DNA of 64,000 bases from a phage: assembly GCA_036930585.1 (NCBI GenBank), contig GCA_036930585.1_3066.1, one strand, 5' to 3'. Numbering within the stretch: the stretch's first letter is position 1; each line of letters opens with the position of its first letter. The notes beneath the pieces are model-generated. The model saw only the letters and a list, made by a program, of their open reading frames with translations, ran no database searches and was not told where the DNA came from. Both the position numbers and the translations under genes were made by a program. Below are positions 12,278-53,230 of the stretch, piece after piece.

Positions 12278-12667
12278 TTAATCCAAAATATTATTAGGCA
12301 TTGGTTGAACACTCACAAGTTCTTTAAAGAACTCAGTAGAGTCAGGCAATTTAACCATTTCCGGAGCATGCTTACTGAATTTATGTTTACATTGACGGCA
12401 TTTATATTCAAGCTCTGGTTTACGCCAGTTAATCAATTGAACTTGTTCAGTTCCACATTCAGGGCAATTAGGAACGTTTTTAGAAGCTCTTTCACGTCGT
12501 TCAACCATAGCCATAATAGCATCCCATGCTGGAGGTTTAAAATCTAAATCGTCGCAGCCGTGAATCTTTCCACGCATTTCCATATCATCTTCCTCACCAG
12601 CCATAATAATTTTAATTAAACTGGAATTACTTGAAGCTGCAATGTCTTCTAATAGACGCTTTTTCAT
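12278..12667 (-). CDS. zinc-ribbon protein
   Basis: CPECG...CRQCKHKF four-Cys motif. Confidence 0.55.
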
Positions 12668-13590
12668 TTCAATACCTCAATAGCATTACGTAAACCATTT
12701 GCTTTGGCGGTTAAAGCCTTAAGAACTTTAGTATGCTCTTCAATTTGTTTTTCAACTTCAGTCAAACGGACATTGAGATATTCACGTTCTTCTTTCATAG
12801 TATCATTTCCATGATTGGGTTTTGGTATAGGTTTAAATTCACTAGGGTCCTTTAATTTAATAACAAATTTAGTTTCAAACAGTGAAAGACCATAATTCGT
12901 ATTATCATCAAAGGATTTGACTACATCCATATCAGATAATAACACGCGCAAATTATAAGCCAAAGAACTAATAGTTTCATTGTGTTTATTAGCTTCGCGT
13001 GGTTTCATATACGGAAGATTTTTATATATCTCATGCGGAGCGCAAACGATAATTGACAATTCAAATTGTCCATTCTGGGACGATGGAATGAATTTAGCCG
13101 TAACCCAGTCTTTTACATTCACATTAATAGTACGGTTATCACCATGACAAAACAGTCTACGAGAATGCTTAAAAAGCATATTCACGTTATTATTGAATTC
13201 GTGTGAAAATTCACTAGCAAATTTTTCTTTACTATCTTTAGAAAACCATTCTTCTAAATAAGTTCTTTTCACGTCGTTAATAATATTAAATGTAACAACA
13301 CTAGCATTTGATACATTAGTCTTAATGTAGCTTGGATACATAAATTTTTTAACATTATTAACAGCTATCACAGAAGATAGTAATCGGGAACGTTTGAACC
13401 ACTCGAGCAAAGAACCAAGAGAATGTGAATACGCATTTTGTGTATCTTTACAAATATGGTTTTCCCATCCAATATAGTCTAAAAAATCACGAAGAATATT
13501 ATTGATTACTGCTCTGTGTCCGATCTGATAATTACGGTGTTTAGTAATAAGACTGTCAAAATAATCAATATAATGTTTACGAGTTTTCAT
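12664..13590 (-). CDS. hypothetical protein, C-terminal coiled coil (family member 1 of 4)
   Basis: 308 aa. Confidence 0.6.
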   Translation of the reverse strand: MKTRKHYIDYFDSLITKHRNYQIGHRAVINNILRDFLDYIGWENHICKDTQNAYSHSLGSLLEWFKRSRLLSSVIAVNNVKKFMYPSYIKTNVSNASVVTFNIINDVKRTYLEEWFSKDSKEKFASEFSHEFNNNVNMLFKHSRRLFCHGDNRTINVNVKDWVTAKFIPSSQNGQFELSIIVCAPHEIYKNLPYMKPREANKHNETISSLAYNLRVLLSDMDVVKSFDDNTNYGLSLFETKFVIKLKDPSEFKPIPKPNHGNDTMKEEREYLNVRLTEVEKQIEEHTKVLKALTAKANGLRNAIEVLK

Positions 13591-13642
13591 ATTCTTCTCA
13601 CTTGGTTAATGGTTTATACTCCGAGCCATCCTTGGCTTTAAA

Positions 13643-14674
13643 TTACTTAATTAACTGTAAAGCTTGTTCAAGACGATTAAGACGATTAACGGATTCTTCC
13701 CAAATCTTTTTAGCCTGCTCATATTCTTTCTGCGCTTTATTAGAAATTTCTAGAACTTCTTTATAAGCTTTTTCTAGTGCAATAACTTCTGGACGAATTT
13801 CTACTGGTTCAGGCGAATCGTCAAGACATTCCATTAGTTCCTCAAGGGTAGTTTCTTCTTTAGGAGTATTCACAATTTCATCACATTTTTGTTGGTAAAT
13901 TTCTTTATCAGTCGGTGAGTACGCACACTTTACTTCACGGAGACTAACTACAATTTTATATCCTTCCCAACCGCATATATTCTTAAAAGGATAAGTATGA
14001 ATATTTTCTACTGTTTCCATACAAAGTAATGCGGTCTCTAATTGACGAGTTATAGTGCTAGCAATTGAGAAAAATTTATTAATGTTCTTTTGATTAGCTT
14101 CTGGTGTAAAAAATCTGTAATTAATAAAAATAGCTACTTTGTTTTTATCAAGTTCATATTCTTCTGCTATAATCATATCATCAGCTAAGGGATGAATTTG
14201 ACGATAATCGCCATAACATAATTTAGAAGCTGATTTTAGAATTTGCTTCGTAAAACTCCTAAATTCACTAACCCAACGACGAGTAAAAATATTCTCAGGG
14301 TCTTCTTTAGTATTAAGATGATAAGTATTAACATCACCGAACCAATTATATCCTACTACATCTTTAGTTCGTTTAATTTCTTTCCCAAATTTACTAAGAA
14401 TATCTCTGTTGACTAAGTATGAAAGAAGACGAGACTCTTTAAAGGTTTTCTTGATAAGATCTTTATCTACACGACTAGAAATTTTACGAATTTCATGAAT
14501 AAATTTGCTGGAAGAAACAATACTTGCATCAGTATTGTTGAGCCACTGATTGATAATAGAAAGAACACTATTCTGACTAGACATAGGTTTAACTTTATCA
14601 TCAATAACGCTATTGAATGATTTGATATATTCGTTACGAGTCATATTAATCTCCTCAGTAGAAAGTAAGAACAT
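13643..14674 (-). CDS. hypothetical protein, C-terminal coiled coil (family member 2 of 4)
   Basis: 343 aa. Confidence 0.6.
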   Translation of the reverse strand: MFLLSTEEINMTRNEYIKSFNSVIDDKVKPMSSQNSVLSIINQWLNNTDASIVSSSKFIHEIRKISSRVDKDLIKKTFKESRLLSYLVNRDILSKFGKEIKRTKDVVGYNWFGDVNTYHLNTKEDPENIFTRRWVSEFRSFTKQILKSASKLCYGDYRQIHPLADDMIIAEEYELDKNKVAIFINYRFFTPEANQKNINKFFSIASTITRQLETALLCMETVENIHTYPFKNICGWEGYKIVVSLREVKCAYSPTDKEIYQQKCDEIVNTPKEETTLEELMECLDDSPEPVEIRPEVIALEKAYKEVLEISNKAQKEYEQAKKIWEESVNRLNRLEQALQLIK

Positions 14675-14702
14675 TATACCACATCCTTGTGGTAAAGTAA
14701 AC
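14673..14702 (-). promoter_or_regulatory. early-type promoter: GTTTAC, 18 bp, TATAAT
   Basis: motif upstream of ORF 13643..14674. Confidence 0.55.
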
Positions 14703-15730
14703 TAGTTCAGTGCATTTAATGCATTGTTCAGTTTAGAACGTTGCTTCGTGAGATTTTTGACTTTTTCTTGTGCTTTTTCTAGCATCTTTTCAGCTTCTAG
14801 CATTTCATTGGTCGCTTTAACGAGTTCATCATCTACTGCCTTAAGAGACTTTTCAATCGCATCAGCGTGCCATTTTTCTACAGGTTTAAAATTTGAATTT
14901 TCAGTAGGAAGAAAACTCACTTTATTAAGTTTACATGCATCTATGTTACTTGAACTGTACATCCAACATTTAGGATCGTTTGATAAGTAATTGGATAAAT
15001 TTAAATTTAAGGTATCTTGCACTTCCTGCTTTTTCTCTTGCGGGACTTCATCCTTTCTCAAAAAATCGTATTTAAATGAAACGATCATATCAAGTTCATA
15101 CGTTGTTGTATGTTCCCAATTTCGCTCAAAATGAGGTAAAATCTTAGACTGAACAGCGGCAACAACATCCATATACTTAAATGCTTCTGTCAACTGTGAT
15201 TTAAGGCATTCACAAATTGAAAGAGAATTTTTTGTATTAGGTTTAAAGCTAATTCGTGCAGTTCTATTATTTTCTTTTAACGGTCTTACTTCCATCTGAA
15301 GAGTATAACCATCAAATTTCAGGTTCTTTAAGTTAATGTCAGAACCTTTTAATCGACTAGCCGTCGACAAAATTTGCTTTAATTGTCTACGGAACAGAGC
15401 AATAAATCTCCATTCAATGCGATAATGATTTGGATTGAAAAATCCAGATGATAAATCGACCTTACTCTGACCAACACCTTGAACAAATAGAGGATTTTTA
15501 TAATCAATAGTTTTACAGAAATCGGTGAGCTGTTCACGAGCAGTCATTTGAGTAATATACCCAGCTTCATTAAAATTACGCACCCATTCACTGCTGTTCA
15601 GATGTTTAAAGGCGTGAATGGAACAATTAACTTTACCAAGGTCTAAATTATTTTCGCACAAAAATGTCATAGCATCACGAGTATAGCTGGCATTACGAAC
15701 CATATCTTCAATTTGAGAACGAGTTTTCAT
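14702..15730 (-). CDS. hypothetical protein, C-terminal coiled coil (family member 3 of 4)
   Basis: 342 aa. Confidence 0.6.
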   Translation of the reverse strand: MKTRSQIEDMVRNASYTRDAMTFLCENNLDLGKVNCSIHAFKHLNSSEWVRNFNEAGYITQMTAREQLTDFCKTIDYKNPLFVQGVGQSKVDLSSGFFNPNHYRIEWRFIALFRRQLKQILSTASRLKGSDINLKNLKFDGYTLQMEVRPLKENNRTARISFKPNTKNSLSICECLKSQLTEAFKYMDVVAAVQSKILPHFERNWEHTTTYELDMIVSFKYDFLRKDEVPQEKKQEVQDTLNLNLSNYLSNDPKCWMYSSSNIDACKLNKVSFLPTENSNFKPVEKWHADAIEKSLKAVDDELVKATNEMLEAEKMLEKAQEKVKNLTKQRSKLNNALNALN

Positions 15731-15738
15731 GGTGTTCC

Positions 15739-16641
15739 TTAAGATTTAAGTAAATCGATAATTTTAATTAACTTTTCACGCTCAGATTTAGCTTTACTAC
15801 TCAGTCCAGATAGTCTGAAAATTTCATCATCATATTGTTGAATAGAAATATTCAGTTCTTCAATCTGTTTATTAAAATAATCAATTTGTTCAGAATGTTT
15901 TTCGTTACTACGAACTGGTACAGGTTTCGTAGGCAATGTAGTTGAACTGGATTCATCCGGGCGATAAATTAAAATACAATTTGAACCAATCGGGCATTTA
16001 GCACCAGACACATATTCTAGTGTTCCAGCTTCTTTTAAAACTTCAAAAGCTAAACAGAGATGATGACCCATATTGACATAATCTGTAGAGTGAGCTCTGA
16101 TATAATAATCATCTCCACGAGTACTAAATTTAAAGCATTTAAGGTCTTCTGTATTATTAGTTTTAAAAATCATTTGTTTATCTAGACCTTTAGCTAATCG
16201 AGCGCCTAATGCTAATAATCGTCGTTGATTTTCCCACAAATCTGCGATCATTTGGTCAAATGATAATTTCGGCATTAGTCGACCATAAAGGTCATATCCT
16301 TTATTATAATTGCGAAGGATTTCACACGCATTAATACGAGACAACGCTCCAATTTTATTAAGTGCTTTCATAATGCGATTAGATAAAAGCATTCCAGACC
16401 CGTTTGTTCGTTGTAAATGTTTATCTAATCCAAACCCAATATCAACTTTAAACTTATCTAAAATTTCAGCATGAACATCTCTGTCAATAACATTCAAATC
16501 CAAAGTTGGGTTAAATCTATGAAAAAATTTATCTGGTTCTCCACGGCGAAGTACAGTCCATTCATTTGATTTTTTATTAACTAAAGATTTAATTACTGCA
16601 TTGACATTATTAATTACTACTGACATATTTTTCTCACTCAA
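15739..16641 (-). CDS. hypothetical protein, C-terminal coiled coil (family member 4 of 4)
   Basis: 300 aa. Confidence 0.6.
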   Translation of the reverse strand: MSEKNMSVVINNVNAVIKSLVNKKSNEWTVLRRGEPDKFFHRFNPTLDLNVIDRDVHAEILDKFKVDIGFGLDKHLQRTNGSGMLLSNRIMKALNKIGALSRINACEILRNYNKGYDLYGRLMPKLSFDQMIADLWENQRRLLALGARLAKGLDKQMIFKTNNTEDLKCFKFSTRGDDYYIRAHSTDYVNMGHHLCLAFEVLKEAGTLEYVSGAKCPIGSNCILIYRPDESSSTTLPTKPVPVRSNEKHSEQIDYFNKQIEELNISIQQYDDEIFRLSGLSSKAKSEREKLIKIIDLLKS

Positions 16642-17097: not shown

Positions 17098-17625
17098 TTA
17101 TGCGAGTACCGTCTTTAACCGTTCTTCAAACTTCCGAAGAGTATTTTGGCGTTCAGCTCTTTGCTTTTTGTAAGTTTCAATACGCTCTGAAATGAGAGTG
17201 TATCGTTCATTTACTGATTCTTTCATAAAATCAGGAATTTCACGAGAAGCTTTAATCTCATCAAATTTATCAATAACAGCTTGCTCTTCAGCAATTAAGT
17301 TATCATACATCAAAATATCTTTCTTGATGAACTCAATATCTTCTTGAGTTACACGAGATAATTTAGATGCTTTATCCTTTTTGTACTGTTCGTTAGTATC
17401 ACGAGACCAGTGTAATGTACGATTTTTATTCGTATTCTTGTAAATTTCTACAATACCAATCTCATCGATAATAACGATCCAATTCCAATGAGATTTGTAA
17501 ATTTGTCCTCCGTCAACCGTGATTTCACCTCCGATTGAGATGTCATTAAAGAACTTGCTTTGTGCTTCAGATTTAAATTTACCATCGTTGTAATTTACCA
17601 GGTTGAAAATATCTTTAGCGTTCAT
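17098..17625 (-). CDS. hypothetical protein
   Basis: 175 aa, preceded by promoter. Confidence 0.55.
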   Translation of the reverse strand: MNAKDIFNLVNYNDGKFKSEAQSKFFNDISIGGEITVDGGQIYKSHWNWIVIIDEIGIVEIYKNTNKNRTLHWSRDTNEQYKKDKASKLSRVTQEDIEFIKKDILMYDNLIAEEQAVIDKFDEIKASREIPDFMKESVNERYTLISERIETYKKQRAERQNTLRKFEERLKTVLA

Positions 17626-47155: not shown

Positions 47156-49138
47156 ATGGCAAATACCCCTGTAAATTATCAATTAACAAGAACAGCAAAT
47201 GCTATTCCCGAGATATTCGTCGGGGGTACGTTTGCTGAAATAAAACAAAACCTCATTGAATGGCTTAATGGCCAAAATGAATTTTTGGATTATGATTTTG
47301 AAGGCTCAAGATTAAACGTTCTGTGTGACCTTTTAGCTTATAATACATTGTACATTCAACAGTTTGGTAATGCTGCTGTGTATGAAAGCTTTATGCGTAC
47401 TGCTAACTTACGAAGTTCAGTTGTTCAAGCTGCACAAGATAACGGATATTTACCTACTTCAAAATCCGCTGCGCAGACCGAAATTATGTTAACATGCACC
47501 GACGCATTGAATAGGAATTACATTACTATTCCTCGCGGAACTCGCTTTTTAGCATATGCAAAAGATACTTCTGTTAATCCATATAACTTCGTTTCTACCG
47601 AAGACGTTATTGCTATTCGTGATAAAAATAACCAATATTTTCCGCGTTTAAAATTGGCCCAGGGACGTATAGTAAGAACTGAAATCATTTATGATAAATT
47701 AACACCTATTATCATTTATGATAAAAATATTGATAGAAACCAGGTTAAATTATACGTTAATGGAGCAGAATGGATTAACTGGACAAGAAAGTCAATGGTT
47801 CATGCTGGTTCTACATCGACAATTTACTACATGCGTGAAACTATTGATGGAAATACTGAATTCTATTTTGGTGAAGGTGAAATTTCTGTTAATGCTTCTG
47901 AAGGAGCTTTGACCGCTAATTATATCGGAGGTCTTAAACCTACTCAGAACTCTACGATTGTTATTGAGTACATCAGTACTAATGGTGCTGACGCGAACGG
48001 AGCAGTCGGATTTTCATACGCAGATACATTAACAAATATAACTGTCATCAATATTAATGAAAATCCAAACGATGACCCAGATTTTGTTGGGGCAGATGGC
48101 GGCGGTGATCCAGAAGATATTGAGCGTATCCGCGAATTGGGTACTATTAAACGCGAAACCCAGCAACGCTGCGTAACTGCGACTGACTATGATACATTCG
48201 TTTCAGAGAGATTTGGTTCTATTATTCAAGCAGTTCAGACTTTCACTGATTCTACTAAACCTGGTTATGCATTTATTGCTGCTAAACCTAAATCAGGCCT
48301 GTATTTAACTACTGTACAGCGTGAAGATATTAAAAATTATCTCAAAGACTATAATTTAGCTCCTATTACGCCATCAATTATTTCTCCTAATTATCTTTTT
48401 ATTAAGACTAATTTAAAAGTCACATATGCTTTAAATAAGCTGCAAGAATCCGAACAGTGGCTCGAAGGTCAAATAATTGATAAAATTGATCGTTATTATA
48501 CCGAAGACGTAGAAATTTTTAATTCATCTTTCGCTAAATCTAAGATGTTGACATATGTAGATGATGCAGATCATTCTATCATTGGCTCATCAGCGACAAT
48601 TCAAATTGTTCGTGAAGTACAAAACTTCTATAAAACGCCTGAAGCAGGTATTAAATACAATAATCAAATAAAAGATCGTTCTATGGAATCTAATACGTTT
48701 TCATTTAATTCTGGACGAAAGGTTGTAAATCCTGATACTGGTTTAGAAGAAGATGTATTATATGACGTTCGCATAGTATCAACAGACCGAGATTCTAAAG
48801 GAATTGGTAAAGTTATTATTGGTCCATTTGCTTCTGGCGATGTTACAGAAAATGAAAACATTCAGCCATATACAGGCAACGATTTTAACAAATTAGCAAA
48901 TTCTGATGGACGCGACAAATACTATGTTATCGGTGAAATAAATTATCCAGCTGATGTGATTTATTGGAATATCGCTAAAATTAATTTAACATCTGAAAAA
49001 TTTGAAGTTCAGACCATCGAATTATATTCTGACCCAACCGATGATGTTATCTTTACTCGCGACGGTTCACTGATTGTATTTGAAAATGACTTACGTCCAC
49101 AATACTTAACTATCGATTTGGAGCCTATATCACAATGA
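47156..49138 (+). CDS. 6: baseplate wedge protein gp6
   Basis: 660 aa; synteny and recall. Confidence 0.92.
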   Translation: MANTPVNYQLTRTANAIPEIFVGGTFAEIKQNLIEWLNGQNEFLDYDFEGSRLNVLCDLLAYNTLYIQQFGNAAVYESFMRTANLRSSVVQAAQDNGYLPTSKSAAQTEIMLTCTDALNRNYITIPRGTRFLAYAKDTSVNPYNFVSTEDVIAIRDKNNQYFPRLKLAQGRIVRTEIIYDKLTPIIIYDKNIDRNQVKLYVNGAEWINWTRKSMVHAGSTSTIYYMRETIDGNTEFYFGEGEISVNASEGALTANYIGGLKPTQNSTIVIEYISTNGADANGAVGFSYADTLTNITVININENPNDDPDFVGADGGGDPEDIERIRELGTIKRETQQRCVTATDYDTFVSERFGSIIQAVQTFTDSTKPGYAFIAAKPKSGLYLTTVQREDIKNYLKDYNLAPITPSIISPNYLFIKTNLKVTYALNKLQESEQWLEGQIIDKIDRYYTEDVEIFNSSFAKSKMLTYVDDADHSIIGSSATIQIVREVQNFYKTPEAGIKYNNQIKDRSMESNTFSFNSGRKVVNPDTGLEEDVLYDVRIVSTDRDSKGIGKVIIGPFASGDVTENENIQPYTGNDFNKLANSDGRDKYYVIGEINYPADVIYWNIAKINLTSEKFEVQTIELYSDPTDDVIFTRDGSLIVFENDLRPQYLTIDLEPISQ

Positions 49139-52100
49139 CAGTAAAAGCACCTTCAGTCACTAGTCTCAGAATTTCCAAGTTATCCGCAAATCAGGTGCAA
49201 GTACGCTGGGATGACGTTGGTGCTAATTTCTACTATTTTGTAGAAATCGCTGAGACAAAAACGAACTCGGGGGAAAATCTCCCGAGTAATCAATACAGAT
49301 GGATTAACTTAGGATATACTGCAAATAACAGCTTCTTTTTTGATGATGCTGACCCATTGACATCATACATTATCAGAGTAGCTACAGCTGCGCAAGATTT
49401 TGAGCAGTCTGATTGGATTTATACCGAAGAGTTTGAAACTTTTGCTACAAATGCTTATACATTTCAAAACATGATTGAAATGCAATTAGCCAATAAATTC
49501 ATTCAGGAAAAATTTACTCTTAATAATTCTGATTATGTTAATTTTAACAATGACACTATAATGGCTGCATTGATGAATGAATCATTTCAATTCAGCCCAT
49601 CGTATGTTGATGTTTCATCAATAAGTAATTTTATTATTGGTGAAAATGAGTATCATGAAATACAAGGTTCTATTCAGCAAGTATGTAAGGATATTAACCG
49701 AGTTTATTTGATGGAATCAGAAGGGATTCTATATCTTTTTGAGCGCTATCAGCCTGTAGTTAAAGTATCCAATGATAAAGGACAAACCTGGAAAGCTGTA
49801 AAGCTCTTCAATGACCGTGTAGGATATCCTTTATCTAAGACAGTATATTACCAATCTGCAAACACAACATACGTTCTAGGATACGACAAGATTTTCTATG
49901 GCCGTAAATCGACTGACGTTAGATGGTCAGCAGATGATGTCAGATTCAGTTCGCAGGATATAACATTTGCTAAACTTGGCGACCAGTTACATTTAGGATT
50001 TGATGTAGAAATCTTTGGTACTTATGCGACTTTACCAGCGAATGTATATCGTATAGCTGAAGCCATTACTTGTACGGATGATTATATCTATGTTGTTGCC
50101 AGAGATAAAGTTAGATATATAAAAACGAGCAATGCACCTATAGATTCTGATCCATTATCTCCAACATATTCGGAAAGGCTATTTGAATCTGATACAATGA
50201 CTATAACTGGAAATCCTAAAGCAGTATGCTATAAAATGGATTCTATTGGTGATAAAGTTTTTGCTCTTATTATCGGTGAAGTTGAAACATTAAATGCTAA
50301 TCCTAGAACGTCAAAAATAATTGATTCTATTGATAAAGGAATATATGTTTTAAATCATGACACAAAAACGTGGAAAAGAGTTTTTGGCAACACTGAAGAA
50401 GAAAGAAGACGTATTCAACCTGGGTATGCGAATATGTCAACTGATGGTAAATTAGTTTCTCTATCTTCGAGTAATTTTAAATTTTTAAATGATAACGTTG
50501 TTAATGACCCTGAAACTGTAGCAAAATATCAGTTAATCGGTGCCGTTAAATATGAATTTCCTCGTGAATGGTTAGCTGATAAGCAGTATCATATGATGGC
50601 ATTTATAGCAGATGAAAAGTCTGATTGGGAAACTTTTACGCCTCAGCCAATGAAATACTATGCAGAACCATTCTTTAACTGGTCTAAAAAGTCTAATACA
50701 CGGTGCTGGATAAACAACTCTAATAGGGCTGTGGTAGTTTATGCAGATTTAAAATATACTAAAGTTATTGAAAATTTTCCAGAAACATCGCCAGATAGAT
50801 TAGTTCATGAATACTGGGATGACGGCGATTGCACTATAGTAATGCCAAACGTTAAATTCACGGGATTTAAAAAATATGCGTCTGGGATGCTTTTTTATAA
50901 ATCTTCTGGTGAAATAATTTCTTATTATGATTTTAACTATCGTGTGAGAGATACAGTAGAAATTATTTGGAAGCCGACTGGAGTATTTTTAAAAGCATTT
51001 TTACAAAACCAAGAGCATGAGACTCCTTGGGCACCAGAAGAAGAGCATGGATTAGCTGACCCTGATTTAAGACCATTAATTGGCACAATGATGCCTGATT
51101 CTTATTTGTTGCAGGATTCGAATTTTGAGGCATTTTGTGAAGCATATATTCAATATCTTTCTGACGGATACGGAACTCAGTATAATAATTTACGAAATTT
51201 AATTCGTAATCAGTATCCACGAGAAGAGCATGCGTGGGAATATTTGTGGTCAGAGATATATAAAAGAAACATTTATTTAAATGCTGACAAACGTGATGCT
51301 GTTGCAAGATTTTTTGAATCACGTAGTTATGATTTTTATTCTACTAAAGGAATTGAAGCATCATACAAATTTCTTTTTAAAGTTCTTTATAATGAAGAAG
51401 TTGAAATTGAAATTGAATCTGGAGCTGGTACTGAATATGATATAATCGTTCAATCTGATTCTTTGACTGAGGATTTAGTAGGACAAACGATTTATACAGC
51501 TACAGGAAGATGTAATGTTACTTATATAGAAAGAAGTTATTCTAATGGTAAATTGCAATGGACCGTGACTATACATAATCTTTTGGGGCGTTTAATAGCA
51601 GGGCAAGAAGTTAAAGCAGAAAGACTTCCTAGTTTTGAAGGCGAAATTATTCGTGGGGTTAAAGGAAAGGATTTGCTTCAAAATAATATAGACTATATTA
51701 ATAGAAGTCGATCATATTATGTAATGAAAATTAAATCCAATTTACCTTCTTCTCGTTGGAAATCTGACGTTATTCGTTTTGTTCATCCAGTAGGATTTGG
51801 ATTTATAGCAATCACGCTTTTAACTATGTTTATTAATGTCGGTTTAACTCTTAAACACACAGAGACAATAATTAATAAATATAAAAACTACAAATGGGAT
51901 TCTGGATTGCCTACTGAATATGCTGATAGAGTAGCTAAATTAACTCCAACTGGCGAAATTGAACATGATTCAGTAACAGGAGAAGCAATTTATGAACCTG
52001 GCCCAATGGCTGGTGTAAAATATCCTCTTCCTGATGACTATAATGCTGAAAATAATAATTCAATATTTCAAGGTCAATTGCCTTCTGAACGACGCAAGTT

Positions 52101-52233
52101 AATGAGTCCTCTATTTGACGCATCTGGAACAACATTTGCACAATTTAGGGATTTAGTTAATAAACGTCTAAAAGATAATATAGGAAATCCAAGAGACCCT
52201 GAAAATCCAACACAGGTTAAAATAGATGAATGA
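49135..52233 (+). CDS. 7: baseplate wedge protein gp7
   Basis: 1032 aa; synteny and recall. Confidence 0.92.
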   Translation: MTVKAPSVTSLRISKLSANQVQVRWDDVGANFYYFVEIAETKTNSGENLPSNQYRWINLGYTANNSFFFDDADPLTSYIIRVATAAQDFEQSDWIYTEEFETFATNAYTFQNMIEMQLANKFIQEKFTLNNSDYVNFNNDTIMAALMNESFQFSPSYVDVSSISNFIIGENEYHEIQGSIQQVCKDINRVYLMESEGILYLFERYQPVVKVSNDKGQTWKAVKLFNDRVGYPLSKTVYYQSANTTYVLGYDKIFYGRKSTDVRWSADDVRFSSQDITFAKLGDQLHLGFDVEIFGTYATLPANVYRIAEAITCTDDYIYVVARDKVRYIKTSNAPIDSDPLSPTYSERLFESDTMTITGNPKAVCYKMDSIGDKVFALIIGEVETLNANPRTSKIIDSIDKGIYVLNHDTKTWKRVFGNTEEERRRIQPGYANMSTDGKLVSLSSSNFKFLNDNVVNDPETVAKYQLIGAVKYEFPREWLADKQYHMMAFIADEKSDWETFTPQPMKYYAEPFFNWSKKSNTRCWINNSNRAVVVYADLKYTKVIENFPETSPDRLVHEYWDDGDCTIVMPNVKFTGFKKYASGMLFYKSSGEIISYYDFNYRVRDTVEIIWKPTGVFLKAFLQNQEHETPWAPEEEHGLADPDLRPLIGTMMPDSYLLQDSNFEAFCEAYIQYLSDGYGTQYNNLRNLIRNQYPREEHAWEYLWSEIYKRNIYLNADKRDAVARFFESRSYDFYSTKGIEASYKFLFKVLYNEEVEIEIESGAGTEYDIIVQSDSLTEDLVGQTIYTATGRCNVTYIERSYSNGKLQWTVTIHNLLGRLIAGQEVKAERLPSFEGEIIRGVKGKDLLQNNIDYINRSRSYYVMKIKSNLPSSRWKSDVIRFVHPVGFGFIAITLLTMFINVGLTLKHTETIINKYKNYKWDSGLPTEYADRVAKLTPTGEIEHDSVTGEAIYEPGPMAGVKYPLPDDYNAENNNSIFQGQLPSERRKLMSPLFDASGTTFAQFRDLVNKRLKDNIGNPRDPENPTQVKIDE

Positions 52234-53230
52234 TTCAAGTGTTATCTATCGTGCGATAGTTACTTCAAAATTTAGAACAGAAAAAATGTTGAATTTTTAT
52301 AATTCAATTGGGAGTGGTCCGGATAAAAACACTATCTTTATCACATTTGGAAGGTCAGAACCGTGGTCATCAAATGAAAATGAGGTGGGCTTTGCCCCAC
52401 CTTATCCAACCGATTCTGTATTAGGCGTAACTGACATGTGGACGCATATGATGGGAACAGTAAAAGTTCTTCCATCAATGCTTGACGCTGTTATTCCTCG
52501 CAGAGATTGGGGAGATACTAGATATCCGGATCCATACACATTTAGAATTAACGATATTGTAGTGTGTAACTCAGCTCCTTACAACGCTACTGAATCAGGC
52601 GCAGGCTGGTTAGTATATCGTTGTTTAGATGTTCCTGATACCGGAATGTGTTCAATAGCATCTTTAACTAATAAGGATGAATGCCTCAAATTAGGCGGAA
52701 AATGGACTCCTTCTGTTAGGTCAATGACTCCTCCTAAAGGTCGAGGAGATGCGGAAGGAACAATCGAACCTGGAGACGGATATGTTTGGGAATATCTTTT
52801 TGAGATTCCGCCCGATGTATCTATAAATAGATGCACAAATGAATATATCGTAGTTCCTTGGCCTGAGGAATTAAAAGAAGATCCAACTAGATGGGGGTAT
52901 GAAGATAATCTCACTTGGCAACAAGATGATTTTGGATTAATTTACCGGGTTAAGGCAAATACTATCCGTTTTAAAGCATATTTAGATTCAGTTTACTTTC
53001 CTGATGCTGCATTGCCAGGAAATAAAGGATTTAGACAAATATCAATAATCACAAATCCTCTTGAAGCTAAAGCTCATCCAAATGACCCAAATGTTAAAGC
53101 TGAAAAGGATTATTATGATCCAGAAGATTTAATGAGGCATTCGGGCGAAATGATTTATATGGAAAATAGGCCACCTATTATCATGGCAATGGATCAGACA
53201 GAAGAAATCAATATTCTGTTTACATTTTAA
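52226..53230 (+). CDS. 8: baseplate wedge protein gp8
   Basis: 334 aa; synteny and recall. Confidence 0.92.
   Translation: MNDSSVIYRAIVTSKFRTEKMLNFYNSIGSGPDKNTIFITFGRSEPWSSNENEVGFAPPYPTDSVLGVTDMWTHMMGTVKVLPSMLDAVIPRRDWGDTRYPDPYTFRINDIVVCNSAPYNATESGAGWLVYRCLDVPDTGMCSIASLTNKDECLKLGGKWTPSVRSMTPPKGRGDAEGTIEPGDGYVWEYLFEIPPDVSINRCTNEYIVVPWPEELKEDPTRWGYEDNLTWQQDDFGLIYRVKANTIRFKAYLDSVYFPDAALPGNKGFRQISIITNPLEAKAHPNDPNVKAEKDYYDPEDLMRHSGEMIYMENRPPIIMAMDQTEEINILFTF

Follow-up and report, generated by a model that had tools for sequence, protein, structure and literature searches.

Four consecutive genes of a T4-like phage, the homologues of nrdC.3, nrdC.4, nrdC.5, and nrdC.6 of T4, are very probably true paralogues, although very divergent ones, and nrdC.6 has diverged the furthest. 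They occupy positions 12664-16641 of a stretch of 64,000 nucleotides of phage DNA (GenBank assembly GCA_036930585.1, contig GCA_036930585.1_3066.1), hereafter the window, whose sequence identifies the phage as a Tequatrovirus. On balance, we favour by a modest degree the view that these genes are an expanded counter-defence family of ancient paralogy, whose products would act as oligomers that bind their targets through variable heads. This region shares 93.1% DNA identity with positions 48933-52908 of T4, annotated as nrdC.3, nrdC.4, nrdC.5, and nrdC.6, and a nucleotide search showed that most of it is present in 462 phage records. A first-pass annotation, made from the letters alone, had described four consecutive open reading frames (ORFs) here and proposed that they are paralogues with a shared oligomerisation tail and diversified heads. 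The ORF listing agrees exactly with its coordinates and places all four ORFs, of 308, 343, 342, and 300 amino acids (aa), on the minus strand, and the C-terminal sequences that it quoted are those of the translations. The four genes are the following:

12664..13590, minus strand: homologue of nrdC.3, 308 aa, from the ORF listing and a match to phrog_1435 (1.4e-98)
13643..14674, minus strand: homologue of nrdC.4, 343 aa as listed, with a match to phrog_1435 (7.9e-165)
14702..15730, minus strand: homologue of nrdC.5, 342 aa, with a match to the Pfam family DUF7235 (PF23882; 3e-117)
15739..16641, minus strand: homologue of nrdC.6, 300 aa from a TTG codon, with a match to phrog_2257 (1.2e-150)

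The similarity between these proteins is far below what the first-pass annotation implied by calling their architectures similar. Pairwise alignment by blastp, one of the checks that it had proposed, gives identities of about 25% or no detectable similarity. The closest paralogue of nrdC.3 is nrdC.4, with an expectation value (E) of 2.5e-5 and 26% identity over 168 residues, nrdC.4 matches nrdC.5 with an E of 0.013, and nrdC.6 has no blastp match to any of the other three. In PHROGs, nrdC.3 and nrdC.4 both match phrog_1435 over their full length, nrdC.5 falls in phrog_2351, and nrdC.6 falls in phrog_2257. In Pfam, where membership of DUF7235 is set by a gathering cut-off of 30 bits, nrdC.5 matches the family with 391.9 bits (E 3e-117, model positions 1-307), nrdC.3 falls below the threshold with 14.5 bits in its tail only, and nrdC.4 and nrdC.6 have no match. 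The source databases annotate homologues of nrdC.4 with PF26897 and those of nrdC.6 with PF26899.

The paralogous family is nevertheless borne out by profiles, bridging relatives, and predicted folds. We built hidden Markov models (HMMs) that left out the family under test, and these retrieved the window copies of nrdC.5, nrdC.3, and nrdC.4 with E of 3e-10, 4e-18, and 2e-23, respectively. The success of these searches is the reason to regard the three genes as homologous. For nrdC.6, the case is made by a bridging single-copy relative, by profile-profile alignment, and by predicted structure. The profile-profile comparisons with hhalign gave an E of 7.7e-4 over 247 colinear columns for nrdC.4 and nrdC.5, and of 1.7e-3 over 198 columns of the head for nrdC.4 and nrdC.6. 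The three hhalign pairings score weakly, yet each is long and colinear, and the same two helices are matched in all of them.

The bridging relatives are the single-copy proteins of Klebsiella phage P545 and Enterobacter phage IME523, which we searched with phmmer against the 181 ORFs of the window and eleven related loci. The P545 protein matches nrdC.5-like proteins (7e-8), nrdC.3 (3.5e-4), and nrdC.4 (1.3e-3), while the IME523 protein matches the nrdC.6 family (2e-7 to 3e-6) and nrdC.5-like proteins (5e-5). In both searches, all members of the array outscore all unrelated ORFs. The part of DUF7235 that covers the tail also matches both single-copy relatives above the cut-off, with 48.3 bits for P545 and 30.7 bits for IME523. 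Since the composition of coiled coils can fake similarity, the searches were repeated with the last 65 residues cut from every sequence. With the tails removed, the held-out members ranked above all unrelated ORFs in 10/10, 9/9, 15/15, and 2/2 cases, and the heads of IME523 and nrdC.6 matched each other at around 1e-4 in both directions.

Structure prediction leads to a similar result. We obtained AlphaFold2 monomer models of nrdC.4 (from an alignment of 19 sequences) and nrdC.6 (21 sequences). A Foldseek search with the nrdC.4 model retrieved a protein of Yersinia phage fPS-65 that, with 308 aa, has the size of nrdC.3 (3e-9, probability 1.0), as well as NrdC.6 of phage JS10 (E 2.9e-6, probability 1.0). 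The nrdC.6 model retrieved the same third-party targets as the nrdC.4 model, namely the proteins of IME523, fHyAci03, and Acj61 (E5E4A2), and the secondary-structure elements of the two models follow each other in identical order. By these models, the predicted fold of nrdC.4 and nrdC.6 is the same.

The duplications themselves must be old. Between the four genes, no DNA repeat exceeds 28 nt, which rules out recent duplication or gene conversion, and the only in-register matches are at the MKTR start codons and the FKP linker. The absence of long repeats thus indicates that the duplications are ancient. We also considered the nearby nrdC.8 as a fifth member and rejected it, as it has no match to the profiles of the tail, the head, or the full family (E around 1 to 4). 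The product of this gene (17098-17625, 175 aa) itself ends in a heptad helix (...YKKQRAERQNTLRKFEERLKTVLA), and its heptad score, computed as described below, was reached by 1 of 200 shuffles.

The layout of a head, a linker containing proline, and a C-terminal helix, as described in the first-pass annotation, is reproduced by both models. In nrdC.4 (mean predicted local distance difference test score, pLDDT, of 79.3), a structured head at residues 13-284 is followed by a low-confidence linker (286-293) and by one unbroken helix of 48 residues (295-342). The head comprises six N-terminal helices (13-94), followed by a small sheet, a pair of helices (126-153), and a hairpin, and then by a long helix at 195-218, a second hairpin at 222-245, and two short helices. 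In nrdC.6 (mean pLDDT of 75.4), the head spans residues 8-226, the low-confidence linker 232-246, and the C-terminal helices 250-276 and 282-299. The family alignment shows which segments are shared: M(K)TR at the N-terminus of all members but nrdC.6, the helices 'F..SRLLS..A...L..F' and 'IL..AS[RK]L..G', the linker 'KP[VI]', and the motif '[RK]xxKLxxA[IL]xxLK' at the extreme C-terminal end. The C-terminal segments are located as follows:

12667..12807, minus strand: C-terminal heptad helix of nrdC.3, around residues 262-308, from the heptad score and the alignment of the tail motif
13646..13792, minus strand: C-terminal helix of nrdC.4, residues 295-343, with the end LNRLEQALQLIK, from the AlphaFold2 helix
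14705..14884, minus strand: end of the linker and C-terminal heptad helix of nrdC.5, residues 283-342, with the end RSKLNNALNALN, from the heptad score
15742..15894, minus strand: C-terminal helices of nrdC.6, residues 250-276 and 282-299, with the end REKLIKIIDLLKS, from AlphaFold2 and the heptad score

The analysis confirmed a long amphipathic C-terminal helix in all four proteins. To assess the heptads, we used a crude a/d score of our own, distinct from COILS or Marcoil, and compared each tail with 200 shuffles of its residues. The nrdC.5 tail has hydrophobic residues at 10/10 a/d positions and the nrdC.3 tail at 9/10, and none of the 200 shuffles reached either score; for nrdC.6, the score was reached by 1 of 200. 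The coiled-coil claim of the first-pass annotation therefore holds as regards the helix in all four proteins and the heptads of nrdC.3, nrdC.5, and nrdC.6, whereas the heptads of nrdC.4 are unexceptional. The idea of a shared tail and diversified heads fares similarly. The tails are homologous, have a common end motif, and are more conserved than the heads: between divergent pairs within each orthologous family, identity is 61-66% in the tail and 40-43% in the head, and the nrdC.4 tail is nearly invariant even among homologues whose heads are around 33% identical. Oligomerisation through these tails as coiled coils is the inferred part of the idea.

The claim that no catalytic motif can be recognised agrees with the searches of Pfam, NCBIfam, and the Protein Data Bank (PDB). 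Besides the DUF7235 match of nrdC.5, Pfam and NCBIfam gave only sub-threshold matches of the coiled-coil type and no enzyme or named family. The PDB sequence searches returned no solved relative; their only matches, to designed helical repeat proteins, were artefacts of repeats in which no stretch reached significance. The four proteins have no match to a thioredoxin family and lack the thioredoxin fold with its CxxC motif; the predicted folds, with a helical bundle, an alpha/beta domain, and a long helix, are not thioredoxin-like. Many GenBank phage records call the genes of the nrdC.2 to nrdC.11 type, these four included, 'thioredoxin', a label that was apparently copied from the gene names nrdC.x. 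We also rejected the idea that these are acidic mimics of DNA like Ocr, since the proteins are neutral to basic (isoelectric point, pI, of 6.5-9.2).

The distribution of the family is narrow. An exhaustive profile search with nrdC.3 and nrdC.4 among 1.84 billion representative proteins gave 10 matches, all in the same family, and all relatives that we saw are from T4-like phages (Straboviridae). Some near-identical copies of these proteins (seen for P0159, P0191, and P0197) are recorded under Enterococcus faecalis or Bacillus cereus, most probably because phage DNA contaminated the assemblies or the assemblies were wrongly labelled. We compared the window with loci of Tequatrovirus (L001 and L003-L006), Yersinia phage P8 (L002), phages VR20, VR25, and VR26 (L007-L009), Marfavirus (L010), Kanagawavirus (L011), and Acinetobacter phage Acj61 (L012). 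In every locus examined, the family lies between nrdC and nrdC.10. The comparison of copy numbers across T4-like genomes, which had been put forward as a check, gave one, two, three, or four copies at this same locus, depending on the lineage. There is one copy in P545 (Marfavirus) and in IME523 (Kanagawavirus), two adjacent copies in Acj61 (genes p120 and p121), three copies, without nrdC.3, in P8, VR20, VR25, and VR26, and four in the Tequatrovirus loci. Among the loci examined, nrdC.3 is found only in Tequatrovirus.

The locus has also changed within these lineages. Phage ACG-C40 has a natural deletion (L001, 5802-6213) that joins a stub of nrdC.5 of 72 aa near a remnant of the nrdC.3 tail. 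The deletion removed nrdC.4 and the greater part of both nrdC.3 and nrdC.5, and left nrdC.6 intact. In a chimeric metagenomic protein (P0161, from a contig of 167 kb), the middle of nrdC.5 is fused to the C-terminal half of nrdC.3. In a viral contig (L006, 7054-8086), nrdC.4 is split into two overlapping ORFs, by either a frameshift or a sequencing error. Finally, a tblastn search of Tequatrovirus records separated nrdC.3 into two classes of alleles, with around 140 records more than 90% identical to the window copy and around 510 at 55-62% identity. The DNA around this bimodal gene is about 90-95% identical across these records, and the pattern suggests allele replacement.

Published genetics provide a function for one of the four genes. 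Srikant, Guegler and Laub (eLife 2022) described T4 nrdC.5 as an uncharacterised early gene that lies within a deletion of an evolved T4 clone (PMC9391042). This clone, which carries compensatory deletions, was unable to plate on strain ECOR17 and regained plating when dsr1 was deleted from ECOR17, and T4 nrdC.5 on a plasmid allowed the deletion phage to plate again on MG1655 with dsr1 (PMC9391042). Dsr1 is a SIR2 defence protein that is thought to deplete nicotinamide adenine dinucleotide (NAD+). A study of 2026 reported that the phage major capsid protein activates Dsr1 via a sensor domain common to Avs7, a domain that also occurs in other defence proteins without a STAND NTPase domain; Avs7 itself has at least 20 different N-terminal effector domains (PMC13581612). 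The nrdC.5 of the window is 88.6% identical to that of T4 over residues 1-333 and lies in the same gene order. It is the orthologue of the anti-Dsr1 gene and may have the same activity. The suggestion of an anti-defence role in the first-pass annotation is thus supported by published genetics for nrdC.5 and is an extrapolation for nrdC.3, nrdC.4, and nrdC.6.

Considering these results, we propose that the ancient duplication of a single gene restricted to Straboviridae gave rise to the tandem array of four genes, nrdC.3 to nrdC.6. Each product consists of a globular head (a helical bundle at the N-terminus and an alpha/beta domain in the centre), a flexible proline-rich linker, and an amphipathic helix of 45-60 residues. 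The products would be early, dispensable, non-enzymatic accessory proteins that work by stoichiometric binding, the variable head recognising a host defence protein. For nrdC.5, the obvious candidate target would be Dsr1 itself. The conserved tail may hold the inhibitor in an oligomer, with higher avidity for oligomeric targets, and the paralogues, each directed at another defence protein or variant, may widen host range. An anti-defence role of nrdC.3, nrdC.4, and nrdC.6 is a serious candidate that we stop just short of calling probable, and the oligomeric-binder mechanism is put forward more tentatively still. It is rather improbable, as a further elaboration, that the tails assemble the paralogues, alone or mixed, into an oligomeric scaffold displaying different heads, each blocking a different sensor of the Dsr1/Avs7 type or another pattern-recognition defence. 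If this were so, the expansion from one to four copies would correspond to T4-like phages broadening the range of host immune sensors that they silence.

Several observations weigh against this proposal. The functional evidence is limited to nrdC.5, and the difference of around 11% from the T4 protein implies that the window copy may miss the same variant of Dsr1. In the searches that left out the tested family, nrdC.6 was marginal, its window copy having an E of 5e-3 and the best unrelated ORF one of 1e-2. The heptad pattern of the nrdC.4 tail is irregular, with breaks of register, and 43 of 200 shuffles reached its score. Finally, nrdC.3, nrdC.5, and nrdC.6 are basic (pI around 9), which would also fit the binding of nucleic acids.

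This last point leads to the alternative that survives best, although we consider it unlikely: the genes would be true paralogues of which only nrdC.5 was co-opted against Dsr1, the other three serving to take over the host or to regulate genes, for instance as basic proteins that bind nucleic acids. The net charge of +7 to +9 of the three basic proteins, the helical bundle with which the heads open in both models, and the literature searched, which reports no phenotype or function for nrdC.3, nrdC.4, and nrdC.6, are compatible with it. However, no DNA- or RNA-binding domain was detected in the proteins, the only member tested is a counter-defence factor, and variation of copy number between lineages, natural deletions, and the replacement of alleles typify host-range genes, not core regulators.

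A narrower form of the counter-defence proposal would have all four proteins act as allele-specific inhibitors of a single family of capsid-sensing sensors of the Dsr1/Avs7 type. The sharing of the Dsr1 sensor domain by Avs7 and other defence proteins (PMC13581612) speaks for it, as does the combination of a common fold of the heads with strong divergence in sequence. Yet proteins retargeted within a single sensor family usually retain more identity than the 25% or less between these paralogues, and we regard this form as somewhat less likely than the regulatory alternative.

It is very improbable that the genes have a role in morphogenesis, the central alpha/beta domain being a module like that of tail terminators that serves, or mimics, the assembly of the tail or neck. 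The resemblance to tail terminators (lambda gpU, SPP1 gp17-like proteins, and the terminator fold of gene transfer agents, GTA) is in fold only, without similarity in sequence, and the proteins differ from them by the additional N-terminal helical domain and C-terminal helix. Tail terminators were not retrieved by the nrdC.6 model, and we rejected membership of that family. Besides, T4 nrdC.5 was described as an early gene (PMC9391042), and the genes can be lost: the evolved T4 clone lacks nrdC.5, and ACG-C40 lacks nrdC.4 as well as parts of its two neighbours, nrdC.3 and nrdC.5.

The weakest alternative, four unrelated genes of like length whose coiled-coil-like ends produce matches driven by composition, would account for the weak direct pairwise scores, the failure of blastp with nrdC.6, and the concentration of much of the single-sequence signal in the tails, but it is largely refuted and hardly credible given that every held-out member outranks the unrelated ORFs once the tails are removed, that the alignment of nrdC.4 and nrdC.6 spans 198 columns of the head, that both models share the order of elements and Foldseek targets at probability 1.0, that the coiled-coil-ended neighbour nrdC.8 fails to match, and that the locus is constant across genera.

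Among known systems, the closest is T4 NrdC.5 (DUF7235) itself, whose architecture and C-terminal motif are found in the other three ORFs of the window, even if these fall below the DUF7235 threshold. DSAD1 of an SPbeta-like phage is a functional analogue, being a non-enzymatic phage inhibitor of a SIR2-domain defence protein that senses a structural protein of the virion. It differs in its target, DSR2, which senses the tail tube protein and which DSAD1 is reported to bind directly, and we detected no relation in sequence or fold between DSAD1 and the nrdC.3 to nrdC.6 proteins. The dmd-tifA-adfA 'anti-TA (toxin-antitoxin) island' and the internal protein IPIII are also early, dispensable, host-range-determining, and located in variable regions of T4-like phages, and the evolution experiment that cost T4 nrdC.5 also removed them through compensatory deletions (PMC9391042). 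In contrast to the tandem expansion of one family of around 300 aa seen here, they are unrelated small proteins.

Part of this picture is already known: the T4 ORFs have long been annotated, three of them have separate Pfam families, and nrdC.5 has already been reported to act against Dsr1. Our searches for nrdC.3, nrdC.4, and nrdC.6, for the Pfam accessions, and for other Dsr1 inhibitors found the eLife 2022 study, a genome announcement, and an incidental point mutation of nrdC.5 only. In this literature we did not find the four-way family with its common design and its single- and double-copy relatives in Straboviridae, nor the expansion and contraction of the family at one locus. T4 is the best-studied lytic phage, and three of these four early proteins of around 35 kDa are without a reported function. 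Their place in a common family with nrdC.5 makes specific counter-defence candidates of three genes that were orphans, the family-wide alignment and its conserved motifs can guide the mutagenesis of nrdC.5, and the 'thioredoxin' label that the genes bear in many GenBank records is wrong.

The starts of two genes are most likely downstream of those listed. For nrdC.4, translation would begin at M11, the ATG at 14644, giving a protein of 333 aa. A GAGGAG Shine-Dalgarno sequence lies just upstream of this codon, and most homologues have 332-333 aa and the N-terminus MTRNEYI. The region includes one further feature:

14673..14701, minus strand: promoter-like site at the junction of nrdC.5 and nrdC.4, with TTTACT, a spacer of 17 nt, TATAAT, and a TG upstream of the -10 hexamer

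In a consensus scan, this site (14701-14673) matches 10 of 12 consensus positions, and its -10 hexamer overlaps the ATG listed for nrdC.4. We take it as a lead only, because such sites are not above the number expected by chance in the region. A weak terminator-like hairpin was also scored within this stretch (14694-14677). Given the overlap of the promoter-like site with the listed ATG and the GAGGAG before 14644, the N-terminal extension MFLLSTEEIN of nrdC.4 is probably untranslated. For nrdC.6, the ATG at 16626, giving 295 aa, is the most likely start since its homologues have 295-296 aa.

On one side, the array is flanked by nrdC.2, nrdC.1, nrdC, and the gene of endonuclease VII, and on the other by nrdC.7 to nrdC.11. 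In the two loci with a single-copy member, a conserved ORF of 257 aa lies around 1 kb upstream of it (3269-4042 in L010 and 3247-4017 in L011), and it has no similarity to the family (E around 0.4). Acj61 (L012, 6229-8938 and 14028-16322) carries a second annotated pair of tandem duplicates elsewhere, p076 and p077. It also has adjacent genes for a nicotinamide phosphoribosyltransferase and a ribose-phosphate pyrophosphokinase, which may constitute a route for rebuilding NAD+.

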